Source of the DNA: Patescibacteria group bacterium
GTDB taxonomy: Bacteria > Patescibacteriota > Microgenomatia > UBA1400 > MFAQ01
Assembly (NCBI GenBank): GCA_943355005.1
Contig: CALRDV010000002.1
Span: 131,826 to 195,825 of the forward strand
DNA: 64,000 nucleotides
Direction: 5' to 3'
Below are positions 10,213 to 44,695 of this stretch, one piece after another. The position numbers and the translations under genes were made by a program. Each line of letters begins with the position of its first letter. Position 1 is the first letter of the stretch. Below the pieces are notes generated by a model. The model was not told the origin of the DNA. It saw nothing but the letters and a program-made list of their open reading frames with translations, and ran no database searches.

Positions 10213-10217
10213 CACGG

Positions 10218-10299: not shown

Positions 10300-10359
10300 C
10301 GTGTGTGCTTATTTTACCATTCCAAGTGCCTCTACTGGTAAAATAACTCTTGATCGTGA

Positions 10360-10441: not shown

Positions 10442-10488
10442 CGCAAATTAAGTCTATTCGCCTTGCGCGAGTAGACTTAAATTTCGTT

Positions 10489-21098: not shown

Positions 21099-21524
21099 AT
21101 GATAAAATTACCTTGCATGAAATATCTTTCCCGGCTGCTCGCCGCCACACTTCTATCTTGGTTTTTGCTTTTTCCCACTCTTACACACGCTGCAAGTCTC
21201 AACCTTGTCTCTCCCAGAGGTAACTGTGGAAACAACGAAATTGATACTGCTCTTGGCTGTATTTCCACAGAAGTGGGAACGGGTCCAAACACCTTCTTCA
21301 GTTCCATTATTGGCATCGCAGTCGGACTCGGTGGAGGTCTTGCCCTCCTTCTTATGCTTTATGGGGTCTTTATCGTCACCACCTCTGCCGGCATTCCGGA
21401 CAAGCTCAAGGAAGGCCAAGAAATTATTACCTCCGCCATCTCAGGTCTTATTTTTATCCTTCTCTCCGTCTTTCTCCTCAATTTCATCGGTATCAAAGTT
21501 TTAAGCCTACCTGGTTTACAATAG
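21099..21524 (+). CDS. Small two-TM secreted/membrane protein, putative VirB2/TrbC-like T4SS pilin paralog
   Basis: A classical signal peptide (cleavage near THA-AS), a Cys-containing mature region, and then two hydrophobic helices separated by a short polar loop (IVTTSAGIPDKLKEGQEI). Confidence 0.4.
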   Translation: MIKLPCMKYLSRLLAATLLSWFLLFPTLTHAASLNLVSPRGNCGNNEIDTALGCISTEVGTGPNTFFSSIIGIAVGLGGGLALLLMLYGVFIVTTSAGIPDKLKEGQEIITSAISGLIFILLSVFLLNFIGIKVLSLPGLQ

Positions 21525-21528
21525 AAAT

Positions 21529-21873
21529 ATGTTAAATTTCACCAAACAGGTCTATGCAGCTGCCGGTGGCACAGGAGTTGATATTTCAAGTATGGACAGC
21601 CCCGTCAAAGCCTTGATTCCCAACAATGCCGACCTGGGCAAATTATTCTCTCAACCCCTCCTCCGTTTTGTCTTTGTCGCCGTCGGTCTGGTTTTTATGT
21701 TTAATCTGGTCATGGCCGGCTGGGACCTTATGCTTAGCTCCGGAGATCCAAAGAAAGTTGCCACAGCCACCACCAGAGTCACCAACGGTTTTATGGGAAT
21801 AATTATATCGATGACGGCATATGTAGTTGTCAAAATCATCCTGACATTCTTAGGTCTAGGTACCATCATTTAA
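21529..21873 (+). CDS. Putative VirB2/TrbC-like pilin paralog
   Basis: An N-terminal leader MLNFTKQVYAAAGG, a first TM helix, the loop SSGDPKKVATA, and a second TM helix. This is the same architecture and loop motif as the 24167-26784 array. Confidence 0.5.
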   Translation: MLNFTKQVYAAAGGTGVDISSMDSPVKALIPNNADLGKLFSQPLLRFVFVAVGLVFMFNLVMAGWDLMLSSGDPKKVATATTRVTNGFMGIIISMTAYVVVKIILTFLGLGTII

Positions 21874-24166: not shown

Positions 24167-24487
24167 ATGATTATTCGACCAGCCCTGGCAGCCTTAGAAC
24201 CTCTAGAAGGACTTTATGCCCCGGGAAAAGCCATGGGAGGTAGTGGGGCTACTCTATCCACTCTACTAAATCCGCTAATTTATAATTTCCTCATCATCTC
24301 CGGAATTCTTGCTTTCATTGTCATTATTTTCGCCGGTTTTAGCTACATCACCGCTTCAGGGGACAAAGGAAAAATTGAGATGTCCCAGAACATGCTAAAC
24401 TATGGCATACTAGGTTTAATTGTTGTTGTTTTGGCCTTTTTAATTACTCGAGTTATTGGAGCCGTCTTTGGCTTTAAATTCTTTTAA
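24167..24487 (+). CDS. VirB2/TrbC-like pilin paralog 1
   Basis: 106 aa: TM1 (LIYNFLIISGILAFIVIIFAGF), loop TASGDKGKIEMSQN, TM2 (ILGLIVVVLAFLITRVIG). Confidence 0.55.
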   Translation: MIIRPALAALEPLEGLYAPGKAMGGSGATLSTLLNPLIYNFLIISGILAFIVIIFAGFSYITASGDKGKIEMSQNMLNYGILGLIVVVLAFLITRVIGAVFGFKFF

Positions 24488-24493
24488 ATACTT

Positions 24494-24862
24494 ATGATAA
24501 ATAATTTAAAATATTTTACATCTACCGTCTACGCAGCAGCTGGTGATGTCGTAGGAATTATAGATCTACCGGTAGGTGTTCCAAAAGAAGTTGTTCAAAC
24601 TACAGATATTATATCTGCCCTCATCCGCTTTTTAATCGTTATTGCCGGACTTTTCTCTCTTTTTCAATTTATAACCGGAGGTATCGCTTTTATTTCCTCT
24701 GGTGGTGACAAAGGTAAAATCACAGAAGCCCAAAACAAAATTCAAATGAGTATTATTGGACTAGTCATTATTACTGCTAGTTTTATAATCATCGCTCTCG
24801 TCAGTAGAATACTTTTCGGATCTTTTACCGCCATACTCGCACCAAAATTACAATCAATCTAA
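24494..24862 (+). CDS. VirB2/TrbC-like pilin paralog 2
   Basis: Leader MINNLKYFTSTVYAAAGD, TM1, loop SSGGDKGKITEAQ, TM2. Confidence 0.55.
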   Translation: MINNLKYFTSTVYAAAGDVVGIIDLPVGVPKEVVQTTDIISALIRFLIVIAGLFSLFQFITGGIAFISSGGDKGKITEAQNKIQMSIIGLVIITASFIIIALVSRILFGSFTAILAPKLQSI

Positions 24863-24863
24863 A

Positions 24864-25232
24864 ATGTTTAAAATTATATCTCCCATCTATGCATCTAACC
24901 CTATTGATTTAGGAAAGGAAATAGAGGGGTCCGGAGTATACCAAACAGGCATAAGTTCTACTGTTCAAACCAGTTTTGGAGGTTTTATTTCTTCTGTTAT
25001 TACTACACTAACTGTTGTTGGTAGTCTAGCCTTCGTTGTTTACTTTACTGTCGCGGGACTAAAATGGATTAGCGCCGGCGGCGACAAGGGCAAAGTAGCC
25101 GAAGCTCAAACCCAAATGACCCAATCCGCCATCGGCCTAATCGCCATTGTAGCCTCTTACTTTATCATCGGCATTGTCGGTGCCGTCCTTGGTTTAGATA
25201 TTCTCAATCCATTTAAAGCGCTTAAATTTTAA
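24864..25232 (+). CDS. VirB2/TrbC-like pilin paralog 3
   Basis: Leader MFKIISPIYASNP, TM1, loop SAGGDKGKVAEAQ, TM2. It starts 2 nt after paralog 2. Confidence 0.55.
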   Translation: MFKIISPIYASNPIDLGKEIEGSGVYQTGISSTVQTSFGGFISSVITTLTVVGSLAFVVYFTVAGLKWISAGGDKGKVAEAQTQMTQSAIGLIAIVASYFIIGIVGAVLGLDILNPFKALKF

Positions 25233-25236
25233 TAAC

Positions 25237-25590
25237 ATGATCATACAAATAGCCCAACCTGCTCTAGCTGCCGATGAAATAGTAAACAATGCCATCTCTA
25301 GCAAAGTCACCAGTTTAGGTGCGGGTGGAGGTCTAGCTTTTTACATTGCCACTCTCTGGCAAACCGTAATCACCGTAGGAGGCATCGCCTTCATTATTTA
25401 TCTCGTTTGGGGTGGCATAGAGTATCTCACTTCAGGGGGTGACAAGGGTCGGATTGACGATGCTCAGAAAAAAATTACCAGTTCTGTAATCGGTATTGTG
25501 ATCCTTGTTGCTTCCTACTCCATCACCTATTTCATCCAACAGGTCTTCAAGATTAACATTCTCAAACCTGTATTTCCCAACGCACTATGA
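25237..25590 (+). CDS. VirB2/TrbC-like pilin paralog 4
   Basis: Leader MIIQIAQPALAADE, TM1, loop TSGGDKGRIDDAQ, TM2. Confidence 0.55.
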   Translation: MIIQIAQPALAADEIVNNAISSKVTSLGAGGGLAFYIATLWQTVITVGGIAFIIYLVWGGIEYLTSGGDKGRIDDAQKKITSSVIGIVILVASYSITYFIQQVFKINILKPVFPNAL

Positions 25591-25949
25591 TCACAAGTTT
25601 TATTCCCAAAGTATTCGCCGCCGCCGATATAGAACTCCCTATCGGCGACACTGTTACCAAAAATAACTTTTTTGGCTATACATGCATCGGCCATCTCGTT
25701 AGCAACTTAGTTAGCGCCGCTTTTATTATTTCAGGTATCGCTTTCTTTGTTATCTTGGTCATGGGTGGAGTCCAGTGGCTGGTCTCAGGTGGCGACAAGG
25801 GTAAAGTCGAAAGTGCTCAGAAAAGTATTTCTGCAGCTCTCATCGGTTTAGCTATAGTTGCCAGTAGTTACGCTGTTTATATCTTAGTTCTTGAGTTCTT
25901 CGGTATCAATCTCGACGCGCTCTGTACAGCTAACCCACTAGGAAATTGA
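25587..25949 (+). CDS. VirB2/TrbC-like pilin paralog 5
   Basis: Leader MITSFIPKVFAAADI, TM1, loop VSGGDKGKVESAQ, TM2. It overlaps paralog 4 by 4 nt. Confidence 0.55.
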   Translation: MITSFIPKVFAAADIELPIGDTVTKNNFFGYTCIGHLVSNLVSAAFIISGIAFFVILVMGGVQWLVSGGDKGKVESAQKSISAALIGLAIVASSYAVYILVLEFFGINLDALCTANPLGN

Positions 25950-26011
25950 CAAGACTAAAATCATATATAATAGTAAGTATTACGAATATCAATTATTAAA
26001 AAATAAAAAAT

Positions 26012-26353
26012 ATGTCCTTTATTTCCCAAGTCTACGCAGCTACCGGCCAACTAGGAGTTCCCCAACCAACGGGTATGAAAATCACCGATATCGGTGTTCT
26101 TATTAGTCGTGTCATTTCCGTCGCCTTTATTATTGCCGGCATCCTTACCTTCGCTTTCTTAGTCATGGGTGGTATCGAGTGGCTAACTTCAGGTGGAGAC
26201 AAAGGTAAAACCGAAAGCGCCAGAAACCGTATCACTGCCGCTATCGTCGGTCTTGCCATCGTCGCCGCATCATGGGCTCTAATGAAACTCATTGCCTACT
26301 TCTTCGGTGTCGACGTCTTCGAGGGAAACATCAATATCCCTAAACCTTACTAA
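26012..26353 (+). CDS. VirB2/TrbC-like pilin paralog 6
   Basis: Leader MSFISQVYAATGQ, TM1, loop TSGGDKGKTESAR, TM2. Confidence 0.55.
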   Translation: MSFISQVYAATGQLGVPQPTGMKITDIGVLISRVISVAFIIAGILTFAFLVMGGIEWLTSGGDKGKTESARNRITAAIVGLAIVAASWALMKLIAYFFGVDVFEGNINIPKPY

Positions 26354-26372
26354 GCATTTAGGATTAGAAAAT

Positions 26373-26402
26373 AAAAAATCCCGGTTACCCGGGTTTTTTT
26401 AT
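26373..26402 (+). terminator. Rho-independent terminator
   Basis: AAAAAATCCCGGTTACCCGGGTTTTTTTAT: a GC-rich 7-bp stem followed by T7. Confidence 0.7.
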
Positions 26403-26418
26403 AATATATAATCAAATC

Positions 26419-26784
26419 ATGTCATTCCAATTAGTTACACAAGCTTATGCTGCGAGCTGGGCTTCAATTGATCCAGCATGTGTCGGCTCACAAATTGGCT
26501 CTGTAGATGCCAGTGATGTCGTCACCATTGGTGGTATTAAATGTTTAATTGCTAACCTTCTTTCTCCCATTCCTGGACTCATCGCTCTAGTGGCTGTCGG
26601 TGTACTCATCATGGCAGGTATTCGTCTTATGTCTGCCGGAGCCGAGCCCAAAGCCATCGCCAGCGCTTGGAACATGTTCACTTACGCCATCATCGGTCTC
26701 ATTCTTCTTGCAGTAGTTTGGCTAGTTCTTGTAATAATCGAGAACTTCACCGGAGCTCAGGTAACCAAATTCGGAATCCCTTAA
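26419..26784 (+). CDS. VirB2/TrbC-like pilin paralog 7 (divergent)
   Basis: Leader MSFQLVTQAYAASWA, TM1 (LLSPIPGLIALVAVGVLIMAGI), loop SAGAEPKAIASAW, TM2. Its own promoter-like ATAATATATAAT box follows the upstream terminator. Confidence 0.5.
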   Translation: MSFQLVTQAYAASWASIDPACVGSQIGSVDASDVVTIGGIKCLIANLLSPIPGLIALVAVGVLIMAGIRLMSAGAEPKAIASAWNMFTYAIIGLILLAVVWLVLVIIENFTGAQVTKFGIP

Positions 26785-26824: not shown

Positions 26825-29800
26825 GTGAAGAAATCCTTTTTGATAGTTACCGTTACTTTCCTTCTGGCTCTAGTTCTGACTAGTATATCTTTGAATGCAA
26901 AAATAAGTTTTGCCGCCAACCCGGCACCGGAAGCAACACCAACAACAGACCCTAGTACTTCAACATCAGTTGCCGAACAAGCCAACCCCGGTCCACCGAT
27001 AGGTATTCCTTGTGGCAAAACCATGTGTCTCGATAATGAAGTCTGTGTTCAATACAAAGGTGATGTTGATATGCACTGTGCTCCTGCAGTTCCAACCCCT
27101 TCTATTTCAGGACCAACAACACCTACCCCCACCCCATCAGGTGTCATCACCCCCACCACTGCTCCCATTCCCGCTGCCCCTCTTCCTGACAAATGCCCGG
27201 AAGGTACAGGAGTATTTCCTCCAAACGGAAAATGCTACAGCAACATCAAGAGTACTCCCAAAGACCCCAATATTTATGACAAAACTTGTATCTATCAGCC
27301 AGTTGTCCAATACACCGATACTCGTAGTTACAACACCCCAAACAAACAATCCTTTGTTCAATGTGGAAAAGGTGACAGCCCTTTTGGACCTGGTCCTGGT
27401 GGAAAAGACCCAAATTGCGATGTTGCACTTCTAGTAAACACCGATGTCAAACAAGCCGAGCTTGGAAGCTACGGACCCAGTCTTCCTGCTGAATATGTCT
27501 ACTCTCCGGATTTTCTGGCTCAAAATTATCTCTACAATTCTTTATTCGGTCGACCCATGGACTTCTCCAATAGCGGTGAGAATAACGGTGAAGTTCCAAA
27601 CAGGGAAGCTTATCGTACATACTGGCGCCTTATGCCGGCTAGCAACCAAGCCAATCTACGCTCATTTATATTGAATATGGCGAACGATAATCAAATTGAT
27701 AATATCTTTTTTGATTTTACGGATACCAACGGTCTACAGAAAAAAACCGACTTTAAATCCCTCTATAAAGCTTTAGAAAAACAAGTCATCTTATTTTGGA
27801 AGTTCCCTTTCATTAGAGTTGGTTGCCTTATAACCTACCCTGTATGTCCTGAATATGCACAAGCCACAAGAGAATTAAAGCCAGTATTTCAAGATTTATT
27901 CGACACTGCACTTAGACTAGATCTTCCCTTAGCTACCCCCGCAATACAAGCATACAATCTGGCCATCGCAGCTTTTGATAAAGATCTTGACGGTCCATAT
28001 AATGCTTTCGTCCCTTTAGACTTCAACAGTGTTCGAAGTTATATCCTAAAAAAACCGGACGTAAAAGAAAACGATGCATATAAATTCTTCAAATATTTTG
28101 AGCCACTACCTAGATATAAACTCTACAATGTCTCATTCGAACACTTACCTTACGTTGGTGCTATCTACCAAGGATTGCTTTCTCCCAAATTCGGCATGTT
28201 ACCCGCACTTCAACCACAGTGGGTAGTTGATAAATATACTACTCCTGATGGTCTCTCAGACTACAGAATGGGAAACAAGCCCGAAGAACTACCGGAAGTT
28301 GCTATAGCTCACCAGGGATTTATAGATCAGCTAGAAGCCGAAGCCAAAGCAATAATCACCAGTCCTCTTGGGTGGATAGCTGATAAGATTTCAGGAATTT
28401 TCTCAGATGAAAAAACTCTAAAAAAAGGATACATCACAGCAGACAAAGACAAATATACCGATGATGAGCGCATTGGCGAAATCAGAGAGGTCTATACCAA
28501 CCCCGTAGGTTGTCCCCTTCCCCTTAGTTATCATGTCTTAGCTCCCAAAACAGCCGCCAAATCTGTTGACGATCACCATCAAGTAATTATTATTCCCGGA
28601 CAGAGACTTGCTTGGTTCTACACGCCGTCTTGTAGTAATCTCGGGGAAAAATGTTCAGTTGTAGGAGGTAAAACTGTTTGTGTTCCCGCCACTTGCACAG
28701 GAAAAGGTAAATACATTGAAGGAGATCAGTGCTGTGAACCAGCCTGGAGCGTCGAAGCCACCGAAGATGCCAAAGCTTTTGATGTCCTAAACAATCCCAA
28801 ACAGGCCGACATCAGAGAGGCTGTGGCCACCAATCCGGAATACTCCTTTTATACTATGATGTTGCCGGATGGTAAACAGAGTATTCCTGAAGCTTCCATT
28901 GATGCTCCGGTAGCTCATCACATTGCAGTCAAAACCCTGCCCAATGGTAAAGGTGAAGTTCTAAATGAATATGAACCTATAAACCGCATCAGCAATGGAG
29001 CCCAAGACTCAATACATTACCTTCAAAACTGCTGGACTGTCCCAGGGAGTCTTCAAAACTCACCCAGATGCAGTCTTACAATAGCCTCAGCTTCCGCATG
29101 CGCCGAACCCCCTGTTTTTACCCCAGATCCTAGCTGTAAAATTAAAAACAACACTCTCAAACTCCCAGACTCTTTAGTAAAAGCAATCGAAGCCGCAGCG
29201 ACCGCCTTCAAAGTTCCTCCTAGTTTAATTATTGGCTTATTCTATGGTGAAGGAGCTTTTAACCCTGGTTCCAAATACTTGCAAGAAGACTTTGTCTCCC
29301 AAAATCTTGCTGCGTGCACCGTAATCCCAGGTTGCAATCCTAGTGCAAATTCGATAAATTCCATTGTCCAGTATCCATCAATCTGGCTGAAACCATATGT
29401 AGACGCAGTCAAAGTCTTTGATCCGGCTCGAAAACCAAATTTATGTAATCTTTTGGATGGCATTTTTGCTATGACCAAAGGAATCGCTCAAACACAGTAT
29501 GGCAATCCTCTCTTTACCGGAAAAACTTGTTTCAATATTCCATTAAACAATGGCTCAGCCAAATCATCAGGCACCTGTTCTTGGGACGAAAGAAATGTCG
29601 AAACCGCTATTCGTGTTTGGGAACTAGGTACTACTTATTCCGAAGGCAATAGTTGTCTTACCAAGGCCGGGAGCTGTCTTACCGGTGGCGGTTACGCAGC
29701 ACAGTGTCCCACAGGAGGAGATACATGCGAAACCAAAGATAGGAGATATTCTCAAGCCAGTCATAACGGCTGTGTTTACGACATTTACAAAGAAAACTAA
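26825..29800 (+). CDS. Large secreted Cys-rich protein (~991 aa) with Pro/Thr-rich linker. Hypothetical, co-located with the pilin array.
   Basis: A signal peptide/anchor (LIVTVTFLLALVLTSISLNA) and a PT-rich low-complexity segment (PTPSISGPTTPTPTPSGVITPTTAPIPAAP). It has numerous Cys residues spread over the length and no ATPase or enzymatic motif I can recognise with confidence. Confidence 0.5.
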   Translation: MKKSFLIVTVTFLLALVLTSISLNAKISFAANPAPEATPTTDPSTSTSVAEQANPGPPIGIPCGKTMCLDNEVCVQYKGDVDMHCAPAVPTPSISGPTTPTPTPSGVITPTTAPIPAAPLPDKCPEGTGVFPPNGKCYSNIKSTPKDPNIYDKTCIYQPVVQYTDTRSYNTPNKQSFVQCGKGDSPFGPGPGGKDPNCDVALLVNTDVKQAELGSYGPSLPAEYVYSPDFLAQNYLYNSLFGRPMDFSNSGENNGEVPNREAYRTYWRLMPASNQANLRSFILNMANDNQIDNIFFDFTDTNGLQKKTDFKSLYKALEKQVILFWKFPFIRVGCLITYPVCPEYAQATRELKPVFQDLFDTALRLDLPLATPAIQAYNLAIAAFDKDLDGPYNAFVPLDFNSVRSYILKKPDVKENDAYKFFKYFEPLPRYKLYNVSFEHLPYVGAIYQGLLSPKFGMLPALQPQWVVDKYTTPDGLSDYRMGNKPEELPEVAIAHQGFIDQLEAEAKAIITSPLGWIADKISGIFSDEKTLKKGYITADKDKYTDDERIGEIREVYTNPVGCPLPLSYHVLAPKTAAKSVDDHHQVIIIPGQRLAWFYTPSCSNLGEKCSVVGGKTVCVPATCTGKGKYIEGDQCCEPAWSVEATEDAKAFDVLNNPKQADIREAVATNPEYSFYTMMLPDGKQSIPEASIDAPVAHHIAVKTLPNGKGEVLNEYEPINRISNGAQDSIHYLQNCWTVPGSLQNSPRCSLTIASASACAEPPVFTPDPSCKIKNNTLKLPDSLVKAIEAAATAFKVPPSLIIGLFYGEGAFNPGSKYLQEDFVSQNLAACTVIPGCNPSANSINSIVQYPSIWLKPYVDAVKVFDPARKPNLCNLLDGIFAMTKGIAQTQYGNPLFTGKTCFNIPLNNGSAKSSGTCSWDERNVETAIRVWELGTTYSEGNSCLTKAGSCLTGGGYAAQCPTGGDTCETKDRRYSQASHNGCVYDIYKEN

Positions 29801-29827: not shown

Positions 29828-31570
29828 TTGACTATGCGACGACTTCAAAAACACCTCAGCCTCATTCTTTTGTTTATTTTTGTATCAATTTCAGTAACTC
29901 TTGCACCAATTACCAGCGCCGCCTCAGGCCCCACTCTCAAAGAAAATCTTTTTGGGCAAGACAACCTTAAAGCTCCCCAAGACTACATAAAGGAATATTG
30001 TGACAAAAGATCGGGTGACCTTATGAATTTAGAAACTTGGTACTCTGGAAAATGTTCTCCAGGAATAGATTCCATGAGTGGTGATGGTGTTGGATTTGCC
30101 GACATAGTGATACTACAGGGTTTGGAATGGTTGTATGGACCACAATACAGTTCTTTTTTAGACAGTCTTATAAAATCTCTAAAATTTATTGAGTCGATAA
30201 AGTCCAAAGCAATATCTGGAGAAATAAAACCAAGTGAAATTGCGTTTGTAGATATGGGTAACATAGGGCTGGTTGGTTCCCTTGGTCGTATAACTACCGG
30301 GCTGGCCAGTGTCAGACCTGCCAGTTCCATGGATTACTTAGCTTATGTCTCCACAAACCTAAAACAACACAAAATCATACCCGATACTTACGCAGCCGGT
30401 CCAGGATATGGATACTCAGCACTAGCACCAATCCTTCCACTCTGGAGAGCTTTTAGAAACATTTCATATCTTATGTTTGCTTTCGCTTTTGTTCTTTATG
30501 GAATGATGATTATGTTTAGAGTCAGAATCGATTCCAAAACCGCAGCTACTATTCAGCTCGCTATTCCAAAATTGATAGCTACTTTAATAATGATTACATT
30601 TTCTTACGCTATTGTTGGATTGCTTGTTGACCTCTCCACTGTGGCCACAGCTATGAGCATAAATATTCTAAAAGCAGGCGGTATTTTAACCTCCTCAGGA
30701 GTAGGAGAGTTCATTCCGCTTGTTGTAAGTGGCCAATCAATATTTGGAGCAATTGGCTCCTTCATTGTTAACACGATAGTAGCAATATTGGTTTCTCCAT
30801 TTATTTTTTTCAATCTTATGGTAGGCGGTTTACTAGGCATAGTTGTAGCCGGCGCAACAGCAATCGTTACAACCTTTGTTCCTTATATAAATGGTATTGG
30901 TCTATTCGTAGGATCACTAATCTTATTCGGAGTCATCATTTCATACGTAAGACTAATAGGTAAACTTTTCCAAGCTTTTATAAGCATTATCGTAAATCTT
31001 ATTTTCGCTCCGATAATATTACTCGGGAATCTATTACCAGGATCAACATCTTTTAGTGATTGGTTAAAAAGTATTTATGGTAATCTAGCTGTCTTCCCTG
31101 TTGCCTGCTTTTTCTTAACCCTTTCTTATGCTCTTATGTGTCAACCCATCCTATCTATTATTGGAAACTTTGGTAGCAGTATTCCCGGCATAAGCCGAGG
31201 ATTTCTTGAATCACTTTTAGGTGTCAACTCACTCTCAACACTAGGAAACATTTGGACACCACCGATGACGATACCTGGTGGAGGAGCAATAGTTAGTGCA
31301 GGAGGAGGCGGATTGGGTAATTTGACAGGTAGTGCTGGAAGCCTAATGCTTGCCACCATCGGCTTTGGACTACTACTTATGTCCAGTAAATATGTCGAAA
31401 TGGTTGAGAAAGCTCTCAAAACTCCTCCATTCCCATACGGAGCTGCCATTGGTGAAGCTCTAAAATCAGGACTAAAACAATCAACTGAACTTGCAAACAG
31501 GAGACCTGGTCCGTCTGTAGCAAAGGATACAGCAAATGTCTTAAACAAAGTGGTTGAGGTAACAAAATAA
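29828..31570 (+). CDS. Polytopic membrane protein, putative VirB6/TrbL-like T4SS channel component
   Basis: 580 aa: a signal anchor, a ~200-aa extracytoplasmic domain, then at least 7 TM helices (FAFAFVLYGMMIMF, LIATLIMITFSYAIVGLLV, FIVNTIVAILVSPFIFFNLMVGGLLGIVVAG, and others). The assignment rests mainly on topology and gene context. Confidence 0.4.
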   Translation: MTMRRLQKHLSLILLFIFVSISVTLAPITSAASGPTLKENLFGQDNLKAPQDYIKEYCDKRSGDLMNLETWYSGKCSPGIDSMSGDGVGFADIVILQGLEWLYGPQYSSFLDSLIKSLKFIESIKSKAISGEIKPSEIAFVDMGNIGLVGSLGRITTGLASVRPASSMDYLAYVSTNLKQHKIIPDTYAAGPGYGYSALAPILPLWRAFRNISYLMFAFAFVLYGMMIMFRVRIDSKTAATIQLAIPKLIATLIMITFSYAIVGLLVDLSTVATAMSINILKAGGILTSSGVGEFIPLVVSGQSIFGAIGSFIVNTIVAILVSPFIFFNLMVGGLLGIVVAGATAIVTTFVPYINGIGLFVGSLILFGVIISYVRLIGKLFQAFISIIVNLIFAPIILLGNLLPGSTSFSDWLKSIYGNLAVFPVACFFLTLSYALMCQPILSIIGNFGSSIPGISRGFLESLLGVNSLSTLGNIWTPPMTIPGGGAIVSAGGGGLGNLTGSAGSLMLATIGFGLLLMSSKYVEMVEKALKTPPFPYGAAIGEALKSGLKQSTELANRRPGPSVAKDTANVLNKVVEVTK

Positions 31571-34566: not shown

Positions 34567-34622
34567 ATAATCGAATTACTTAACCAATTATACCAAAATT
34601 ACAGCCTCAACACTCCTCCCCA

Positions 34623-36224
34623 TTAGAGCTTAGTAACATCAATTCCGGCGTCCTGAAGACGTTTCACTACAATTTTATAGCTTTCGGTATTACAAAATGC
34701 AGGTATTATTGCCAATTTAAGGTCAAAATTCATTCCTGCATATTCCAAAAGCTCACGCCCTTCTAGTATGGGGTAGTTTTCAATCACAGGAGCTTCTGGT
34801 TCTGATTCTTCGGGACCACTCGCAATTCCAACACCGTTTAAATAAATCAAAGCTTCTGATTTACTCTTATAAAATTCATTCTTTTTCAGCTTTGGATCCC
34901 ACAAAAACTCTGCGGCGGCGGCAACGAATTCTCTATTCCTAAATCTTTCTATCTCTCCGGGAGAATCCTGAGTCAAAGACATCCTTGGGAGATTAATTCC
35001 CATTTTTCTCATTTTATCTACAACTTCCCATCTATTTTTTCTTTGCTCTGGAGTTAAGGATTCATCAAAAAAAGTAGCGTTTTTCAAATCACCAACGATT
35101 TCAGGATACCAAATAAGTTTCCTTTCTCCGGTCTCTACTTTTTCGATTCTCCCTCCGGCGACATCAACTTCTTGATCTTTCAATATTTTGCTTTCCGCCG
35201 AATCTTCCTCAACCTTTTGAGCCTTCACATTTTCTACTTCTTCGACAAACACCTCCTTTCTTCTTCTCGCCTCTCTCAAGAGATTAAGGTTTATACCTGA
35301 TTTATGTAGTGCTGAATCCATATCTTCCCATTCCTTTGGTTCATCTATTTTTATTTTCAAGAAATCATCTATTTCCTTAAGTATTTTCTTGCCTCCCTTA
35401 TAATCTCTCGACGATTTTTCGGTCACTGGAGGCAACCAACGAATACCGTTTTTTTTGCTTCTATTCTTAACGTCTATCCAAATCTCATTCGAATACTCCT
35501 TATCTGGATATATTACTCTCAAATCAGAAACCAAATGCTCCGTATAGTACTTAATCAAATCCTCCTCAGATACTACTTCTTTTTTTTCAGCTATATTCTT
35601 TTTTCTTTCAACTGCTTCCGTTAACCCCAAAATTCCCATATCTATTGGAAGAACCGTTTTAGTTTCTTTCTTCCAATTTAACAATCCTGCGTCTGGTTGG
35701 GTTTTTTCTGGTAAATCCATATCTATCTGACTGACCACTCTTGCGCGTTCAATTCTCCTTTTCACTTTACCAGGTATTTCGTCAACAACCTCATCTTGAA
35801 TCTCATCTTCCCGCCTCTCTTCTTTTTCACCACTACTTTTTTTAACAATCCCTTCAATTACATCTTTCTTCCAGTTCAAAATCGTAAAATCATCAGGAAT
35901 GTTACCATCTCCTCGTATTATTTCTCTGAGCTGCTTAATTTGATCCCTGAATTCTTCATAAGCAACGCCATTAGTAAAATTCAAAATCTCCCCTTTCTTT
36001 TTAATCGCGACAACCACTATTCCCAGCTCAGAAAAATCATACAAATCTCTCAAATTATTATAAGCATCCACTGTCGCCTGCCTCTGCACCAGATCTTTCA
36101 TATCATCCATCACTTTAAACTCCGTCAAACCTCCAATTTTGAGCAAACTACGATAAACATCAACTTTCTTCCGCACTTCATGCTCAGGCGTTATTTTCCC
36201 TTTATCATCATAATCGAATGGCAT
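34623..36224 (-). CDS. Hypothetical protein (533 aa)
   Basis: A charged, Lys/Glu-rich ORF with no recognised motif. It is convergent or divergent with the neighbouring T4SS-like genes. Confidence 0.45.
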   Translation of the reverse strand: MPFDYDDKGKITPEHEVRKKVDVYRSLLKIGGLTEFKVMDDMKDLVQRQATVDAYNNLRDLYDFSELGIVVVAIKKKGEILNFTNGVAYEEFRDQIKQLREIIRGDGNIPDDFTILNWKKDVIEGIVKKSSGEKEERREDEIQDEVVDEIPGKVKRRIERARVVSQIDMDLPEKTQPDAGLLNWKKETKTVLPIDMGILGLTEAVERKKNIAEKKEVVSEEDLIKYYTEHLVSDLRVIYPDKEYSNEIWIDVKNRSKKNGIRWLPPVTEKSSRDYKGGKKILKEIDDFLKIKIDEPKEWEDMDSALHKSGINLNLLREARRRKEVFVEEVENVKAQKVEEDSAESKILKDQEVDVAGGRIEKVETGERKLIWYPEIVGDLKNATFFDESLTPEQRKNRWEVVDKMRKMGINLPRMSLTQDSPGEIERFRNREFVAAAAEFLWDPKLKKNEFYKSKSEALIYLNGVGIASGPEESEPEAPVIENYPILEGRELLEYAGMNFDLKLAIIPAFCNTESYKIVVKRLQDAGIDVTKL

Positions 36225-38080: not shown

Positions 38081-39136
38081 ATGGCTATTCAACAGCATCC
38101 ACTACCACAGGACATTAGCTCCTATCGCTTCCGCCTAATTGGCGATATGACTATCAAGCAGTTTGCCTCTCTTGGCATCTGTATTGTTTTAGCCATTATT
38201 GCGTACAGTATGCCCCTCCCTTTCTTTTTTAAATACCCTTTAGCCTTTATGTTTATCGTACTAGGCGTAGGTATGGCTTTTGTCCCCGTTCAAGGACGTT
38301 CTCTGGATGTTTGGATTCTTGCTTTTATCCGTTCCATTTATTCTCCGACTCAATATACATGGAAACGTTCTGAAGAAACTGTTTCAAATGAAATGTCTAT
38401 GAAGAGTAATGGAGTGGGTACTCAAGCAGTTACAAACGCCAGAATCGAACTCACCCAAGCTCCCGCTTCAGTCCCCAATACTCCATCTGTCTCCATCACC
38501 CCTCCTGCATCAGAGCCAAAAACAGAAGAGAGACTCGAAATAACTCCTCCACCATCCGTCATTGCGAACCCGCCTTCAGAGGGTGTGGCAATCCAGGCTA
38601 CAAATCAAACCGAAGTCCCAGTTCCTGAATTAGGAAAAATTATAACTTCCTTAGCCCCAGTAATACCTACCGAGCCGGAAAAACCCACCCAACCAATAAC
38701 ACTTACTGTCATTCCGGGCTTGACCCGGAATCCATCTGGTACATCAGACGCCCAATCGACACCATCCGTCATTGCGAGAGACCTACCCGCTGTGGAAGGA
38801 GCACGGCAATCTAGTTTACCAGCCACCCCATCAACTAACCCTCCCCAGCAAACCCAGCTCCCCATCCCCTACACCCCCACTACCCCAAACACTCTCGTTG
38901 GACTTACGTTGTCTCCGGAAGGTAAAATTTTGGACGGGGTCATGGTAGAAATTCAGAGAAACGGTCTAACTTCCAGAGCCACCAAAAGTAACAAACTTGG
39001 CCAATTTATGTTCGCCAGACCTTTGGAAAATGGCTTGTATCAAATCCTCGCCGAAAAAGATTCTTTTACCTTTTCACCATACTCTTTAGATCTTACCGGC
39101 ACTATTATCCGACCTCTTAAAATCCAAGCACAATAA
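38081..39136 (+). CDS. PrgI/VirB3-like membrane protein with C-terminal carboxypeptidase-regulatory-like domain. It contains in-frame palindromic repeat insertions.
   Basis: The N-terminus (YRFRLIGDMTIKQFASLGICIVLAIIAYSMP ... AFMFIVLGVGMAFVP) has the two-TM PrgI-like pattern. The C-terminus (LTLSPEGKILDGVMVEIQRNGLTSRATKSNKLGQFMFARPLENGLYQILAEKDSFTF) resembles a CarboxypepD_reg beta-sandwich. The central Pro/Thr linker includes VIPGLTRNPSGTS and PSVIARDLP, which are encoded by copies of the dispersed repeats. Confidence 0.45.
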   Translation: MAIQQHPLPQDISSYRFRLIGDMTIKQFASLGICIVLAIIAYSMPLPFFFKYPLAFMFIVLGVGMAFVPVQGRSLDVWILAFIRSIYSPTQYTWKRSEETVSNEMSMKSNGVGTQAVTNARIELTQAPASVPNTPSVSITPPASEPKTEERLEITPPPSVIANPPSEGVAIQATNQTEVPVPELGKIITSLAPVIPTEPEKPTQPITLTVIPGLTRNPSGTSDAQSTPSVIARDLPAVEGARQSSLPATPSTNPPQQTQLPIPYTPTTPNTLVGLTLSPEGKILDGVMVEIQRNGLTSRATKSNKLGQFMFARPLENGLYQILAEKDSFTFSPYSLDLTGTIIRPLKIQAQ

Positions 39137-39138
39137 TC

Positions 39139-39789
39139 ATGGCAGACAACGTTAAATCCTCCACCCAAGAAAGCCTCGATATTTACACTATCAAAAACCA
39201 TTTGGTTTTTCTCAAAGATGGTTCTTGTTCTCTGGTACTAAAAACTACCGCTATCAACTTCAATTTATTATCTGAAGAAGAACAAGACGCCACTATTTAT
39301 GGCTACGCCGGATTACTCAACTCTCTCTCATTTTCTATTCAAATCCTTGTTCGATCTCAACGAAAGAATATTTCCGATTATATAAATCTTCTGGATACCC
39401 GTATTCAAAGTACTCCTTCCCAAAAAGTCAAAGAACAGCTTCTTTCCTATCGTCAATTTGTAAAATCTCTAGTTAAAGAAAATCGCGTTTTGGAGAAAAA
39501 GTTCTATATTATTATTTCTTTCTCTGCTGTTGAGCTTGGAGTTACTAAATCAACCTTTAATCCGTTTGCCAAAACTCCCCAAAAACCTCCTTTTGATATC
39601 GAATATATTGAAGAAAAAGCCTCCATGGCTCTCTATCCTCGACGCGACCACATCATCCGACAATTTGCCAGAATTGGTCTCAAGGCAAGCCAACTCACCA
39701 CCAGCGAACTCGTCACACTCTTCTATACTATTTACAATCCTGGTAGCGTCACCCAACAAATCACTCCGGGTAAATCCGTCGCCTCCTAA
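39139..39789 (+). CDS. Hypothetical protein, possibly a separately encoded VirB4 N-terminal-like domain
   Basis: 216 aa, translationally coupled with both neighbours. Weak resemblance to T4SS ATPase N-terminal domains (LVFLKDGSCSLVLKTTAINFNLLSEEEQDA). Confidence 0.35.
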   Translation: MADNVKSSTQESLDIYTIKNHLVFLKDGSCSLVLKTTAINFNLLSEEEQDATIYGYAGLLNSLSFSIQILVRSQRKNISDYINLLDTRIQSTPSQKVKEQLLSYRQFVKSLVKENRVLEKKFYIIISFSAVELGVTKSTFNPFAKTPQKPPFDIEYIEEKASMALYPRRDHIIRQFARIGLKASQLTTSELVTLFYTIYNPGSVTQQITPGKSVAS

Positions 39790-39818
39790 ATCTTCTTTTC
39801 TTAAGTTATACTTAAAGC

Positions 39819-41693
39819 ATGGCTCTGAATCTATTTTCTCTTGGCAAAAAAGCCGCTCCGACAACAGCTGTTGAATCAACGGTACCAGCCAACACGCCTC
39901 CTCATAACTCCAACACTTCGGGGTTAAAGTCCACCGCTTCTAGCCAGTCAGTTCAAGATATTATTGCTCCATCGGCTGTCGAAGTAGATTTTTCTTTTAT
40001 CAAAATAGATGATAACTACGTCCGAACTCTTTTTGTCACTGGCTACCCGCGTTACGTTTCGGCTAATTGGCTCTCCCCCCTGATCAATTTCAACCACTCC
40101 TTGGATATTTCCATGTTTGTTTACCCCTCCGACTCCAAAGATACTTTAGATAGTCTCAGGCGACGCATTGCCGAAATGGAAGCAGAAATAAATACTGATA
40201 TCGAACGAGGTCGTATCCCCCGCGCTGCCACCGAAGCCGGATTAGAAGACGCCAAGGTTCTCCAATCTCAACTTGTTAAAGGAGCAGAAAGATTTTTTCA
40301 ATTCTCTTTGTATATCAGCATCTCCGGAGACTCAGTCAAAGAGCTAGACACTGTTACTGCTCAAGTTCAATCCATGTTGGCTTCCCTCCTTATCATCAGC
40401 AAGGTCGCCTCTTTATCTATGGAGGATGCTTTCAAAACCACTTTGCCGTATTGCAAAGATAAATTAATGTTAACTCGGAACATGGATACCACAGCCCTCT
40501 CTACTACTTTTCCATTTACATCTTCTGAACTCTCTGATAATCAAGGTATTCTTTACGGCGTCAACGCTCATAATGATTCTCTCGTAATTTTTGATCGCTT
40601 CTCTCTTGAGAATGCCAATATGCTCATACTCGCCACTTCCGGTGCCGGTAAGTCTTATGCAGTAAAGCTCGAAATTCTTCGTTCTCTTATGTTCGACTGC
40701 CAAGTTATTATTCTAGACCCGGAAAACGAATACGAAATGGTCACCAAATCTGTCGGTGGCAACTATCTCTCTTTCTCCACCGGTGCTACTCACAAAATTA
40801 ACCCCTTCCAAATCGCCAGACCACAAGATAGCAGTGAAGATGAGATGGGTTACAAATATCTTTTCCTTATGTCGCTTCTAAAAATCATGATTGGTGTCAT
40901 GGATCCTATTGAAGAAGCCACTATGAACCGCGCTTTAGTTCTCACTTATCGTCAGAAGGGCATTTCGGAAGATCCAACTACTCACATTCTGGAGGCACCC
41001 AGAATGGAAGATCTTTATCGTGCTCTTATCGGCATGGAAGAAAGTGTTTCCAAGACTTTAGCTGCCAGACTAGAAAGATATGTCATGGGTGGTGTAAAAG
41101 GTATTTTTGATCAGCAAAGCAATATCGACATCAATGCTCCCGTCACCGTTTTTACTTTAAGGGACACTGCCGACGAAATTCGCCCTATTATCATGTTTAT
41201 GATTCTAGACTTTGTTTGGAACCAAGTCCGCAAAGACTTACGCAAAAGAATTCTCGTTGTCGATGAGGCTTGGTACCTCATGAGATACGAAGATTCCGCC
41301 AAAATTCTTCAGGGTTTTGTCAAACGCGCACGTAAATATTACTTTGGTGTATCTATCATTTCTCAGAACGTCGACGACTTTCTTGGTTCAGCTTACGGCA
41401 AAGCTATTATTACCAACTCTGCCCTCAAACTCCTCCTTAAACAATCCTCAGCTGCCATCAATCAGATCTCTGAAGTCTTCTATCTCTCTCAAGGAGAGAA
41501 ACAACTTCTTCTCTCTGCTGGCCAAGGTGAAGGTATTTTCTTCGCCGGTATGAATCACGTAGCTATCAAAATTATTTCCTCTGCCGACGAACATGCACTT
41601 GCTACCAGTAAACCGGCCGAAATTCTCGAAGCCAGAAAGAAAGAAAAAGAAGCTCGAGAAGCTGAAATCGCAGCCGATAAAGCCAACACCTAA
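39819..41693 (+). CDS. VirB4/TrbE/CagE-family T4SS ATPase
   Basis: Walker A NMLILATSGAGKSYAV, Walker B RILVVDEAWYLM, and an N-terminal YVRTLFVTGYPRYVSANWL segment typical of the VirB4 family. 624 aa. Confidence 0.75.
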   Translation: MALNLFSLGKKAAPTTAVESTVPANTPPHNSNTSGLKSTASSQSVQDIIAPSAVEVDFSFIKIDDNYVRTLFVTGYPRYVSANWLSPLINFNHSLDISMFVYPSDSKDTLDSLRRRIAEMEAEINTDIERGRIPRAATEAGLEDAKVLQSQLVKGAERFFQFSLYISISGDSVKELDTVTAQVQSMLASLLIISKVASLSMEDAFKTTLPYCKDKLMLTRNMDTTALSTTFPFTSSELSDNQGILYGVNAHNDSLVIFDRFSLENANMLILATSGAGKSYAVKLEILRSLMFDCQVIILDPENEYEMVTKSVGGNYLSFSTGATHKINPFQIARPQDSSEDEMGYKYLFLMSLLKIMIGVMDPIEEATMNRALVLTYRQKGISEDPTTHILEAPRMEDLYRALIGMEESVSKTLAARLERYVMGGVKGIFDQQSNIDINAPVTVFTLRDTADEIRPIIMFMILDFVWNQVRKDLRKRILVVDEAWYLMRYEDSAKILQGFVKRARKYYFGVSIISQNVDDFLGSAYGKAIITNSALKLLLKQSSAAINQISEVFYLSQGEKQLLLSAGQGEGIFFAGMNHVAIKIISSADEHALATSKPAEILEARKKEKEAREAEIAADKANT

Positions 41694-41695
41694 CC

Positions 41696-44695
41696 ATGGC
41701 TAACTACGAAAAAGAAATTAAGGAAGCAGTTGGAGTCCTTGATTATCTCGATAGAAAAATCGATTACAACGAGGAACCAGAAGCCGCAAAATGGTTATCT
41801 TCTGGATTCTTTTACTACAAAGAATACTTTCGTTTAAACAAAAATCCAGAGTTCAAATTTGACCAAAAAGTCGAAAATTACGATTCTTTTCAAAAGAATG
41901 TAGAAAAACCAGTCTTCAACAAGATTATTCAATTTTATATTTCTCTACAGAATCTTCCGGATGAAGTTTATCGTAATGTTCCAATTCGTTTTTTAGGAGA
42001 ACCAGAATTAGTTAGTGATGGCAGAGTAAAGATAAAAATTCATTTTAATGAAATATTTGTCAGAGGGTTACTCTCAGACATTCCCAGCTATCTCGAACTA
42101 GATACAGGGTCTATTTCCAATATTGATGATGTCTTAAAAGTCGGAGATATTAAGACTCCAGACAATATAAAAGTAATAACCAGTGAAAATGAAATTATAG
42201 TTTCCCTTACAGACCTCCAAGAAAAGGAAACTCCTACTACAGTATCAACAACCGATGAAAAAATAAGTGAAGAAGAGGTAGCTGATACGAAAGAATTAAC
42301 AGAGCAGGCTAACCTTGAAGAAGAATCGATAAAACCCAAAGAACTGAATGTTGGCGATGCTGGAAGTGTCCCTCCCGAAATAGAAAGTCTTGTTGGTGAA
42401 TACAAAAAGAATCTTAATCGTTTAAATGAGCAAGAGATCAAAGATAATCATCAAAAATCCGTTGCAGAACAAGTAAAAATCGCAATTGAACACTCAAATC
42501 GACGAGAATTAATATTGGCGAACCGGCGAGAACGAGAAGCAAAGGGTGAAAAATTTCAAGACCCGGACCAGGTAATTGTTAGTTATGGCTCTCCTAAGGA
42601 CAACACTAAAGAGGATGCTCTTCAACTATCCTTTAATGCAATTGAACGAACGGCGACACTTTACAGTGGTTTCAAAACACTTCCTAAAAACATACAAAAA
42701 CAAATAGTCTTTCAGGCAGTAGAACTAAATACTATTGGAATTTTCGATTTGGATGCCGCTATTCAAACAGCTTCATACCAATTAGGAATTAAGGGTATAA
42801 CCTCACCTTTTGTCTCAAGTATCTTCGAAGAAATAGATCACGAGGACAACTTTTTAAAAGAAACCGAATCAAAACTTCATCAAAATGAAAAATCAATCGA
42901 TTTCTTGAAGTCTAAAAACACTCTTACCGAATCAGAACGACAGTCTCTTATTAAACTAATCAAGGAAAACGGAGATCTTTCGACAAACCTTGGAAAAATC
43001 CCCACAAATTTTAATAGTTTTCTTTTATCCAATGAAGACAAATTTAAAGAATATTCCAAAATCATAGACCACAAAGATGCTGATCCTAAAGACGTTCTAG
43101 ACCTAAAAGAAAACACTTTAGATGCCAACAAAAAGATACTATCTATCCAAAAAAACTTACTTCTTAACGGTATCCAACCTAAAACATTCACAGATTTAGA
43201 TAAAATTAATGGTCTCGCTGAAGCCATTCAAAAGGATTTAAAAGTTCTAAATAAAAACGCTACTTATGAAGGATCATATTCCGCAGCTGTTGTCGGAATG
43301 GCTCCTGGAGGCTCCGGCGAAGCCCTTGTAATTCTAAATTTTTCCAAAGGATTAACAGGTGAAACTCTTCGCAAAGCAGAGGCCTTTGCTTTAGCAAATC
43401 CAAAATCAGCTACAGCTATATTTTTAAGGAACAACACTAAGACCGTTGAGATTGCTCGAAGTTACATTAGAAAAATAGAAAATTCCCCTCTAGGAAAAGA
43501 AATTCTACCCGCTATAGGGAAAGCCAATTTTATTATTAGTGCAGTAACAAACCCCGTTGGAGCCTTAAAAAGCTGGGCCGGCAAAAAAGCCGGCGAACAA
43601 TTGGCTATCCGCATTTCGGAAAAAATTGGAAATGAAGTACTCAAAAATGCGGCAAATACCCTACTTACTCAAGGAATGAAGGGGGGGGTAAAAAAACTAG
43701 CATCAGAAGCGGCTACCAAAATGGCCGCTAAAGTTGCCACTTGGGCAGCGGTCAAACTCGGTATAAGTCTTTCAGCTGAATCCCTAAACGCTATCATGCC
43801 TGGTCTTGGAGTAATTGTGGATATTGTCATCCAAGCAATCATATGGGTTGCTGAAAAAACAATCGGTCAAGTTAAGAAAAATTTAGATTCTCTATGGAGA
43901 GAGATGGGCTGGGGAGAAGAATTCCGCACGCGAGATATCATAGTTCCTGTAGTAGCAGTCGTCGCAACAGCAACCACCTTCGTCATCGCCAAAGGTTTTA
44001 TTATAAAAAAAGCGACCCAAATAGCGGCCATCTCAGCTGTCAAGATACTCCTTTCCGCAGGAGGTTTTATTCTTGCTTATGTCATGTTCGCCTACCTTGT
44101 TGCTCCAATTCTATCCACTTTAGTCCAGTTCGACAGTCTCGAAAAAGTCGAGTACCCATCTGCAACATCAAACGAACCGGCTATTCCGGGGTGTCCGTCT
44201 CGATGGCCTGTCACAGGTTCATTCAGAATCACTCAAGGACCGGGTGGTAAATATTCACATTACAGCTCCGGATACGACCAATCTGTAGATATTGCTGCCC
44301 CATCAGGTACAACTGTATTTAGCACCTCAGATGGAATTGTCAGTTTTGCCGCCGTCTCCGGACCATATTTAAATACAAATGTTGTTTTTGTTGACTCTAA
44401 ATTACCAGACGGAAAGTCTTTTCAAGTTATCTATGCTCACTTAAGTTTTATGAAAGTACACAAAAACGACAAAGTTAAAGTTGGAGATATAATTGGATCT
44501 TCAGGTACAGCCGGCTCCGGAGCTCACTTACACTATGAGTACAAGGGGATTAAGTACAATCAGTGTCCGGCCGGAAACTTAAAATTAGCCGAAAACTGCG
44601 ATTCCCACTCAGTTCCGGGAGCAGGCTTCAGATGTGTACCCGACGTCGGCACCTTCTTATATACTAATGGTGGAGCTGGAATAGTAGGGCATTAA
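41696..44695 (+). CDS. Large (999 aa) membrane-associated protein with C-terminal M23 (LytM) peptidase domain, a putative T4SS-associated cell-wall hydrolase (VirB1 analog)
   Basis: The C-terminus has YDQSVDIAAPSGTTVFSTSDGIVSF ... YAHLSFMKVHKNDKVKVGDIIGSSGTAGSGAHLHYEY (HxxxD / HxH M23 metallopeptidase signature). There is a long coiled-coil/charged middle and TM helices around residues 740-790. Confidence 0.65.
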   Translation: MANYEKEIKEAVGVLDYLDRKIDYNEEPEAAKWLSSGFFYYKEYFRLNKNPEFKFDQKVENYDSFQKNVEKPVFNKIIQFYISLQNLPDEVYRNVPIRFLGEPELVSDGRVKIKIHFNEIFVRGLLSDIPSYLELDTGSISNIDDVLKVGDIKTPDNIKVITSENEIIVSLTDLQEKETPTTVSTTDEKISEEEVADTKELTEQANLEEESIKPKELNVGDAGSVPPEIESLVGEYKKNLNRLNEQEIKDNHQKSVAEQVKIAIEHSNRRELILANRREREAKGEKFQDPDQVIVSYGSPKDNTKEDALQLSFNAIERTATLYSGFKTLPKNIQKQIVFQAVELNTIGIFDLDAAIQTASYQLGIKGITSPFVSSIFEEIDHEDNFLKETESKLHQNEKSIDFLKSKNTLTESERQSLIKLIKENGDLSTNLGKIPTNFNSFLLSNEDKFKEYSKIIDHKDADPKDVLDLKENTLDANKKILSIQKNLLLNGIQPKTFTDLDKINGLAEAIQKDLKVLNKNATYEGSYSAAVVGMAPGGSGEALVILNFSKGLTGETLRKAEAFALANPKSATAIFLRNNTKTVEIARSYIRKIENSPLGKEILPAIGKANFIISAVTNPVGALKSWAGKKAGEQLAIRISEKIGNEVLKNAANTLLTQGMKGGVKKLASEAATKMAAKVATWAAVKLGISLSAESLNAIMPGLGVIVDIVIQAIIWVAEKTIGQVKKNLDSLWREMGWGEEFRTRDIIVPVVAVVATATTFVIAKGFIIKKATQIAAISAVKILLSAGGFILAYVMFAYLVAPILSTLVQFDSLEKVEYPSATSNEPAIPGCPSRWPVTGSFRITQGPGGKYSHYSSGYDQSVDIAAPSGTTVFSTSDGIVSFAAVSGPYLNTNVVFVDSKLPDGKSFQVIYAHLSFMKVHKNDKVKVGDIIGSSGTAGSGAHLHYEYKGIKYNQCPAGNLKLAENCDSHSVPGAGFRCVPDVGTFLYTNGGAGIVGH

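Follow-up and report, generated by a model that had tools for sequence, protein, structure and literature searches.

Glycosidases that open the cell wall are a described component of type IV secretion systems (T4SSs), and lysozyme-like or soluble lytic transglycosylase (SLT) domains are encoded within the T4SS clusters of VirB1 (Agrobacterium) and, in Gram-positive conjugation systems, of PrgK, TraG (pIP501), CwlT and TcpG. In such clusters the glycosidase is accompanied by a separate peptidase activity (PMC12102498). A survey of thousands of Patescibacteria genomes by Quinonero-Coronel et al. detected no adhesins and a small number of VirB1 homologues, whose role, the authors proposed, other glycosidases may take (PMC12102498). 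The pilin-bearing T4SS is essential in the one genetically tractable member of the group, and its function has been called completely unknown (PMC11665869, PMC10633639). In Southlakia epibionticum (Saccharibacteria), the T4SS locus encodes the essential protein SEML1_0006, with two lysozyme-like domains and one cysteine-proteinase domain (PMC10633639). Here we describe a stretch of 64,000 nucleotides (hereafter the window; contig CALRDV010000002.1, positions 131,826 to 195,825, assembly GCA_943355005.1) from an uncultivated, Collierbacteria-like lineage within the candidate phyla radiation (CPR) with ultrasmall cells, and a gene in it (26825..29800 including the stop codon, + strand, GTG start) that encodes an exported, cysteine-rich protein of 991 aa directly after an array of VirB2-like T4SS pilin genes. 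Predicted structure and genomic association, on which our reading is based, point to a C-terminal tail with a lysozyme-like fold that is exchanged among close relatives.

The locus shares some features with each of the described systems and departs from all of them. As in VirB1-type clusters, a domain of glycosidase type, judged by its predicted lysozyme-like fold, lies inside the T4SS cluster, and here too a peptidase (M23) is encoded beside it. Unlike VirB1, PrgK, TraG, CwlT and TcpG, the 991-aa protein has no sequence match to SLT, CHAP or NlpC models, places its presumed catalytic domain at the C-terminus behind ~750 aa of a novel Cys-rich extracellular protein, probably carries a signal peptide instead of an N-terminal membrane anchor, and is encoded after the pilin array, with a catalytic domain that is swapped between close relatives. 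The S. epibionticum locus resembles it in having a pilin array, PrgI, VirB4 and the M15B/M23-like protein SEML1_0007 (PMC10633639), but SEML1_0006 is a protein of 643 aa that matches PF18013 and PF01832 and is encoded downstream of VirB4, after the peptidase gene, and Saccharibacteria have no large secreted gene after the pilin array. The muramidases of type VI secretion systems (T6SSs), Tse3-Tsi3 and Tge, and the bacteria-killing T4SS effectors of Xanthomonas differ in that export here would be by Sec and not through a secretion channel, and in that they have immunity proteins while the tail of the window's protein has no partner; a Pfam scan of the 991-aa protein found no XVIPCD, MIX or PAAR-type delivery domains. 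Phage tail lysins (tape-measure lytic transglycosylases (LTs), phi29 gp13, T7 gp16) also end a large carrier with a wall-cutting lysozyme-like domain, the carrier sitting on a filament that has to get through the wall of another cell, the part that the pilus would play here. Unlike theirs, the conserved core of the 991-aa protein has no similarity to viral predicted structures or to PHROG families, and its context is chromosomal, with dnaA and dnaN adjoining the T4SS genes in the window. The protein is also not a small (~220-aa) helical protein of the VirB5/TraC family, and it lacks the adhesin domains and C-terminal LPXTG of PrgB-type proteins, with no match to an adhesin family.

T4SS-linked wall hydrolases, polymorphic muramidase effectors and phage tail lysins are therefore kinds already known. 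What is new is that such a gene follows an array of VirB2-like pilin genes in a T4SS of monoderm type; that the N-terminal ~750 aa contain a ~630-aa core for which no fold relative could be detected; and that tails which no curated model recognises are exchanged between near-identical genes, with pilin fusions and a partner gene of one tail type besides. No curated family model recognises the core, the divergent tail families, of which type A has been shown to be lysozyme-like in fold, or the candidate inhibitor or immunity protein of one tail, and the family is a candidate for the glycosidase in the VirB1 role in Patescibacteria. It also raises the testable idea that wall-cutting enzymes are displayed by the pilus at the surface of the host; if this is true, a wall-piercing pilus would explain in concrete terms why epibiotic growth depends on the pilin-bearing T4SS.

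The 991-aa protein and its predicted lysozyme-like tail

The gene is real and conserved, far above chance. A word-indexed search of 5.8 billion proteins returned 42 full-length homologues (37-57% identity, one of them named Candidatus Collierbacteria), a GTDB scan with one genome per species found 17 loci, the named ones being Candidatus Collierbacteria, and an exhaustive hidden Markov model search of 1.84 billion representatives retrieved 268 proteins at E<=1e-3. The open reading frame (ORF), which the original prediction had placed 40 nt after the last pilin gene, was confirmed there, the spacing to the last pilin ORF (end 26784) being exactly 40 nt. It is single-copy in the window, and the last pilin gene, the 991-aa gene and the next gene have no terminator-like site between them.

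The tail of the window's protein (residues 772-991; 29138..29797, + strand), which we call type A, was modelled alone from 17 sequences, with a predicted local distance difference test (pLDDT) value of 76 (85-95 across the first 130 residues) and a predicted template modelling (pTM) score of 0.80. Its best fold matches were MltF (8.9), a lysozyme-like chitinase (8.6), the T6SS muramidase Tse3 (8.4) and MltC (8.0), followed by Slt (7.9) and by Slt70, g-type lysozyme and MltE (7.2 each); the next ~40 matches were likewise all lysozyme-like, phi29 gp13, T7 gp16 and tail-tip lysins were also among the matches, and even in the poor full-length model the top fold class was lysozyme-like. The model thus shows the tail to have a lysozyme-like fold, with the alpha-helical, two-lobed arrangement of GH23-type enzymes. 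Structure prediction and a fold search were the route by which the original prediction had hoped to find lectin-like or lytic-transglycosylase-like subdomains, and they yielded this lysozyme-like tail, nothing lectin-like and no confident housekeeping fold; its statement that the protein has no recognisable enzymatic motif does not survive for the last 220 aa.

A candidate catalytic residue is found where GH23-type enzymes have theirs, in an E-S/E-G motif with which a helix ends. Glu809 (codon GAA, 29249..29251, + strand), in the motif 'YGEGAFN', directly follows helix 28-37 of the domain model, and it aligns, at non-significant E values, with the Glu of 'TESSFNP' in MltC and of 'TESRFN' in an LT domain of a phage tape-measure protein, no other PDB sequence being matched by the type-A profile. 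Invariance of this Glu in the 17 type-A sequences, pilin fusions included, is an argument that catalysis has been retained; also invariant are C837, C874-N875, D878, C902, W920, C944 and C983. We infer that the tail would cut the glycan strands of peptidoglycan, with Glu809 as acid. The earlier remark that the GEGAFNPGS segment is weakly SLT-like is thereby borne out in predicted fold and candidate catalytic residue, and fails as to a curated SLT family match and the later family-1 motifs.

Upstream of the tail the protein is built as a secreted, disulfide-rich carrier. Its only hydrophobic segment is N-terminal, and residues 1-30 (26825..26914, + strand), with MKK, a hydrophobic core and a putative cleavage site between SFA and A, read from the sequence as a cleavable Sec signal peptide rather than the signal anchor that had been claimed. 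Two linkers (residues 27-50 and 88-121) consist of Pro, Thr, Ser and Ala to ~75%, in line with the Pro/Thr-rich stalk described earlier. Between them sits a small, conserved 4-Cys beta module (residues 55-87; 26987..27085, + strand), whose C63, C68, C74 and C85 are conserved in >=90% of homologues; AlphaFold places beta strands at 61-87 with pLDDT ~70-78, and the linkers fall below 50. The protein is exported and Cys-rich, as had been noted, with 32 Cys in place of the ~40 then given, and 22 of these are conserved in >=90% of the 42 homologues. It ends in '...HNGCVYDIYKEN', with no LPXTG wall anchor.

The conserved core (residues 121-750; 27185..29074, + strand) is of mixed alpha/beta structure, with pLDDT 70-94 in most 10-residue blocks, in a full-length AlphaFold model of mean pLDDT 70 in which the tail beyond the invariant C749 is modelled poorly. 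Most of the invariant residues of the 42-sequence alignment lie in it (e.g. 'REAYRTYWRL', 'YPVCPEYA', 'DDHHQV' and 'AQDS.H.LQNCW'), it has no detectable relative outside the family, and a PDB sequence search with the whole-family profile gave nothing meaningful.

Tail exchange among relatives and fusion to pilins

Conservation among related genomes, which the original prediction had considered worth comparing, is split along the protein, with a conserved core and a variable tail. After C749 there are at least four mutually unalignable tail types: type A, as in the window ('...VPPSL..G..YGEGAFNPGS...'); type B, the majority type ('...GVPCEVLAGIHY.EGDNNP...YNGGGN'); type C ('...GVNPAFALT.WL.ESGASNY'); and type D, found in one protein ('...WKLEGGATQ...GPMQI', with 'GPMQI...NAYG'). 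Proteins with near-identical cores can end in different types, as P0012 (type B) and P0013 (type C) do at 95% core identity and P0014 (A') and P0011 (type C) at 82%, and the type-A proteins have tails that are 55-59% identical on cores of 38-43% identity. At the DNA level, loci L004 and L005 share 92% identity over the stretch between the last pilin gene and codon ~765, cannot be aligned over the following ~1.4 kb, and return to 94% identity farther on. As judged from these alignments, the tail is shown to be a cassette exchanged by recombination between near-identical genes. Comparison of the tail profiles gave only a short A-B match (E 6e-4, 39 columns round the Glu motif) and, between C and D, a weak one (E 0.015), which does not establish that all tails share an ancestor. 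A PDB match of type B was rejected as a designed Kelch-repeat artefact. A distant member of the family (L026, 3944-6829; 961 aa) has a type-C-like tail and a core insertion of ~290 aa, in which the segment 'GNELNS...LTEYG' is reminiscent of clan GH-A glycosidases and found no support in Pfam.

Type B comes with a gene of its own. In 14/14 type-B loci vs 0/10 others, the family gene is immediately followed by a gene for a ~188-aa protein whose N-terminus carries a membrane anchor, a split that overstates the independence of the observations because the loci are phylogenetically related. The gene (~188-191 aa; L001 12955-13521, L003 13011-13577, L005 4373-4948) has no family match, and its association with type B makes it a candidate inhibitor or immunity partner. 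It is absent from the window, where no ~188-aa homologue was found in the 64 kb and type A has no partner gene. We also considered an orphan cassette of the type-A tail as the identity of the ~188-aa gene, an idea prompted by a 188-aa type-A match (P0044) that proved to be a fragment; the idea was rejected, the gene encoding an unrelated membrane-anchored protein. The architecture has one property of polymorphic toxins, a conserved N-terminal part on which unrelated C-terminal modules recombine; the other, a co-varying downstream immunity gene, is seen by association for type B only and is missing for the window's type A. The type-B module alone also ends many other proteins of 300-1400 aa (P0077-P0193), which makes it a widespread unannotated domain, and two of the ten such proteins that were scanned (P0078 and P0089) have an N-terminal NAGPA phosphodiester glycosidase domain.

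The type-A domain also occurs outside the family, fused directly to pilins. In three Paceibacterota proteins of 388-402 aa (P0048, P0049 and P0050), a PF18895 pilin domain is followed by a linker of ~100 aa and a type-A domain, and a type-A profile search aligned these domains at 37-40% identity and 95% coverage, with the Glu and the Cys pattern kept. P0050 is encoded in a Paceibacterota T4SS operon near dnaA, downstream of a VirB4-like gene with two small ORFs between. These fusions share with the window the type-A domain, its invariant Glu, its Cys pattern and a T4SS operon, and differ in the carrier, which is a VirB2-like pilin (~165 aa plus linker) there and a separate 750-aa protein encoded after the pilins here. 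By analogy, the core would replace the pilin as carrier in Collierbacteria. The gene of P0050 is followed by a second one with a near-identical pilin half: in this Paceibacterota locus (L008, 10001-12219; GCA_020049655.1, contig JAHZTS010000544.1), the tandem genes have VirB2-like pilin halves of ~165 aa and different tails, one a type-A lysozyme-like domain and the other Cys/His-rich ('SHHEWRAIDI...HEDHIHFS'). The latter suggested an M15/LAS zinc peptidase ('H..D ... H.H'), an assignment that found no Pfam or PDB sequence support. In P0112, a type-B-like module is joined to a weak pilin-like C-terminus. Taken together, the pilin fusions argue that the type-A and type-B-like domains work on the pilus.

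Possible roles of the protein

The reading that we favour, and on which our confidence is evenly balanced, is that the 991-aa protein is a Sec-exported, disulfide-rich accessory of the T4SS or its pilus, with an exchangeable lysozyme-like head that cuts peptidoglycan, most likely that of the host wall. The protein would be exported together with the VirB2-like pilins, the core would keep it at the pilus or contact site, and the head, with Glu809 as acid, would cleave glycan strands in peptidoglycan, the touched host cell's wall being the most likely substrate, so that the wall would be opened for the pilus or the T4SS channel. An association of the protein with the pilus is probable, and we propose that the core is its carrier or targeting part. 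The host wall is a likelier target than the producer's own: the fusions to pilins, the exchange of cassettes and the partner gene of type B favour a target that is outward and variable, and a wall-opening tool is likelier than a plain adhesin because the protein ends in a lysozyme-like domain, which relatives swap for other versions. A wider version, tentative and on balance doubtful, makes the pilus itself a wall-piercing device with interchangeable cutting heads at its outer end, fused to pilins or borne on the new-fold carrier of Collierbacteria, with swaps that would match or escape host walls and inhibitors and with membrane-anchored self-protection needed for type B.

Several observations weigh against the favoured reading. 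In its last ~60 residues the tail model is poor, and the matches of type A to the two LT motifs are non-significant by themselves (E 0.7 and 1.3). Pfam, NCBIfam and PHROG scans of the 991-aa protein, its tail and 41 homologues gave no match, even though the tail-alone Pfam/NCBIfam scan was run permissively (E<=10); PF01464 SLT and related lysozyme families had no significant match in any of these, and the later family-1 LT motifs (GLMQ, AYNxG) were not seen when the type-A alignments were read. Among the tail types the predicted lysozyme-like fold is established for type A alone, PDB sequence searches with tails B, C and D having given nothing meaningful. The analogy to effector and immunity pairs does not apply directly to the window's type A because it has no partner gene, and the relatedness of the loci reduces what the type-B association can add. 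Binding of the core to pilins and retention of the protein on the cell are proposals.

As the main alternative, the head might act in the manner of VirB1, cutting the producer's own peptidoglycan locally for assembly of the channel or pilus, alongside the M23 protein, as PrgK, TraG, CwlT and TcpG do in Gram-positive conjugation. The T4SS locus has an M23 peptidase and otherwise no recognisable glycosidase, and the S. epibionticum locus has an essential lysozyme-like protein and, besides, an M15B/M23-like one; Gram-positive T4SS hydrolases, moreover, pair a glycosidase with a peptidase (PMC12102498). A wall is also probably present in the producer, because the window encodes cell-wall genes, e.g. 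a SpoIID homologue. We nevertheless consider this unlikely: a self-directed housekeeping hydrolase leaves unexplained both the cassette swaps between near-identical cores and the fusion in which this domain is joined to a pilin's outer end, it has no need of ~750 extra conserved Cys-rich extracellular residues, and the protein has no homology to SLT or CHAP models. The general autolysin or cell-division hydrolase that the SpoIID-like, undecaprenyl-diphosphate synthase and polyprenyl synthase genes nearby could suggest would be unrelated to the T4SS, its adjacency being lineage-specific gene order. That is the least credible of the readings, since the place between pilins and membrane protein is kept despite nearby insertions, the same domain has been fused independently to pilins in another class, and tail polymorphism is unexpected in a division enzyme.

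Two other readings turn the protein outward without making it a wall-opening tool of the pilus. The original prediction offered a pilus-tip adhesin or a surface effector, and an adhesin or tip protein whose core, possibly with a dead glycan-binding tail, attaches the pilus to the host, the tail tracking glycans, would suit a gene directly after the pilin array and a large, extracellular, disulfide-rich product in which a small Cys module sits between stalk-like Pro/Thr linkers. The role is vacant as well, the Patescibacteria survey having detected no adhesin (PMC12102498). Family scans and fold searches of the 991-aa protein turned up nothing of lectin, Ig-like or adhesin type, the candidate catalytic Glu is invariant in 17/17 type-A sequences including the pilin fusions, and the partner gene of type B is closer to the logic of inhibitor and immunity. 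Variable distal domains are typical of receptor-binding proteins, and to that extent tail exchange would suit an adhesin too. We regard an adhesin as improbable, there being likewise no LPXTG and no resemblance to VirB5 or PrgB. A surface effector, the other half of that prediction, comes closer to the evidence; the gene is a fixed neighbour of the pilin array, with synteny in the 24 loci examined. The second reading is a polymorphic antibacterial toxin, secreted and wall-degrading, with exchangeable heads and immunity, aimed at competitors or at lysis of prey and merely co-located with the pilus genes. Unalignable C-terminal modules do recombine on a conserved N-terminal part, type B strictly co-varies with a downstream membrane-anchored gene, its module ends many other architectures, some with NAGPA glycosidase domains, and Tse3 is among the best fold matches of type A; yet types A (window), C and D have no partner gene, each locus has one copy at one fixed position with no arrays of orphan tails, the ~188-aa gene is no tail cassette, and the pilin fusions bind the domain to the pilus. 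A toxin of this kind therefore seems very unlikely.

The T4SS locus and its surroundings

Seven VirB2-like T4SS pilin genes, recognised from ORFs, translations and paralogue similarity, occupy 24167..26784 on the + strand (24167-24487, 24494-24862, 24864-25232, 25237-25590, 25587-25949, 26012-26353 and 26419-26784). All seven combine two hydrophobic helices with a leader and an 'SGGDKGK' loop, and the last two, which were the two scanned, match PF18895 T4SS_pilin above the gathering score, with weak NCBIfam pilin matches. Two more pilin-like ORFs (141 and 114 aa; 21099..21873, + strand, with a tblastn pilin match at 21532-21858) lie upstream, with two genes for prenyl-diphosphate synthases between them and the main array, and such an upstream pair is also present in L001, L006 and L007. 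Between the sixth and seventh pilin genes lies a perfect GC hairpin, CCCGG-TTAC-CCGGG, followed by a T-run (26380-26393); on either strand it resembles a terminator, and it could dampen transcription continuing into the seventh pilin gene and the 991-aa gene.

A polytopic membrane protein of 580 aa (29828..31570, + strand) is encoded from 27 nt past the 991-aa gene. It has many hydrophobic segments, and it is a candidate VirB6 analogue; the original label of VirB6-like rests on this topology and on position, Pfam, NCBIfam and PHROG having given no match. Among the 24 loci examined, a homologue of it lies downstream of the family gene in 23, and pilin genes lie upstream in every locus with enough flank. 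The order of pilin genes, 991-aa gene and membrane protein gene is kept despite nearby insertions (toxin-antitoxin pairs, CTP synthase).

The remaining T4SS genes follow on the same strand and comprise a PrgI/VirB3-like gene (38081-39136, Pfam), a TraC/TrsD-like gene of 216 aa (39139-39789), assigned by position, a VirB4-like ATPase gene (39819-41693, Pfam) and a gene (41696-44695, Pfam, with PHROG peptidase matches) whose product, a membrane protein of 999 aa, contains an M23 peptidase domain. The same order (38081..44695 in the window) is found in L001, L003, L006 and L007, where the 216-aa homologue carries PF26593, and the arrangement matches that described for Patescibacteria T4SSs (PMC12102498). 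The peptidase domain of the M23 protein lies at residues 862-950, with hydrophobic segments at ~697-812 and an unexpected Pfam match to Ribosomal_TL5_C at residues 94-172 (E 1e-11).

Between the membrane protein gene and the PrgI-like gene, the window encodes two large, highly charged proteins on the minus strand (958 and 533 aa; 31690-36224), with no family match and no predicted membrane segment; related loci have large minus-strand ORFs (801-953 aa) and a variable second gene at the same position. A CTP synthase gene (36370-38055) follows them and precedes the PrgI-like gene, and since it is absent at that position in L001, L003, L006 and L007, the T4SS locus is interrupted in this genome. 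Genes related to the wall (SpoIID-like, undecaprenyl-diphosphate synthase and polyprenyl synthase) are also nearby. Further upstream, we observed a dense tRNA cluster (6917-10444) with five tRNA-Ser and two tRNA-Arg genes, in which one tRNA-Ser (10127-10213) is called with the anticodon ACT, unusual in bacteria, and a tmRNA of 414 nt (15695-16108, ARAGORN) with the long tag peptide VNKEDKILGFISSGVKSLFGEVKSSAPVYAFA.

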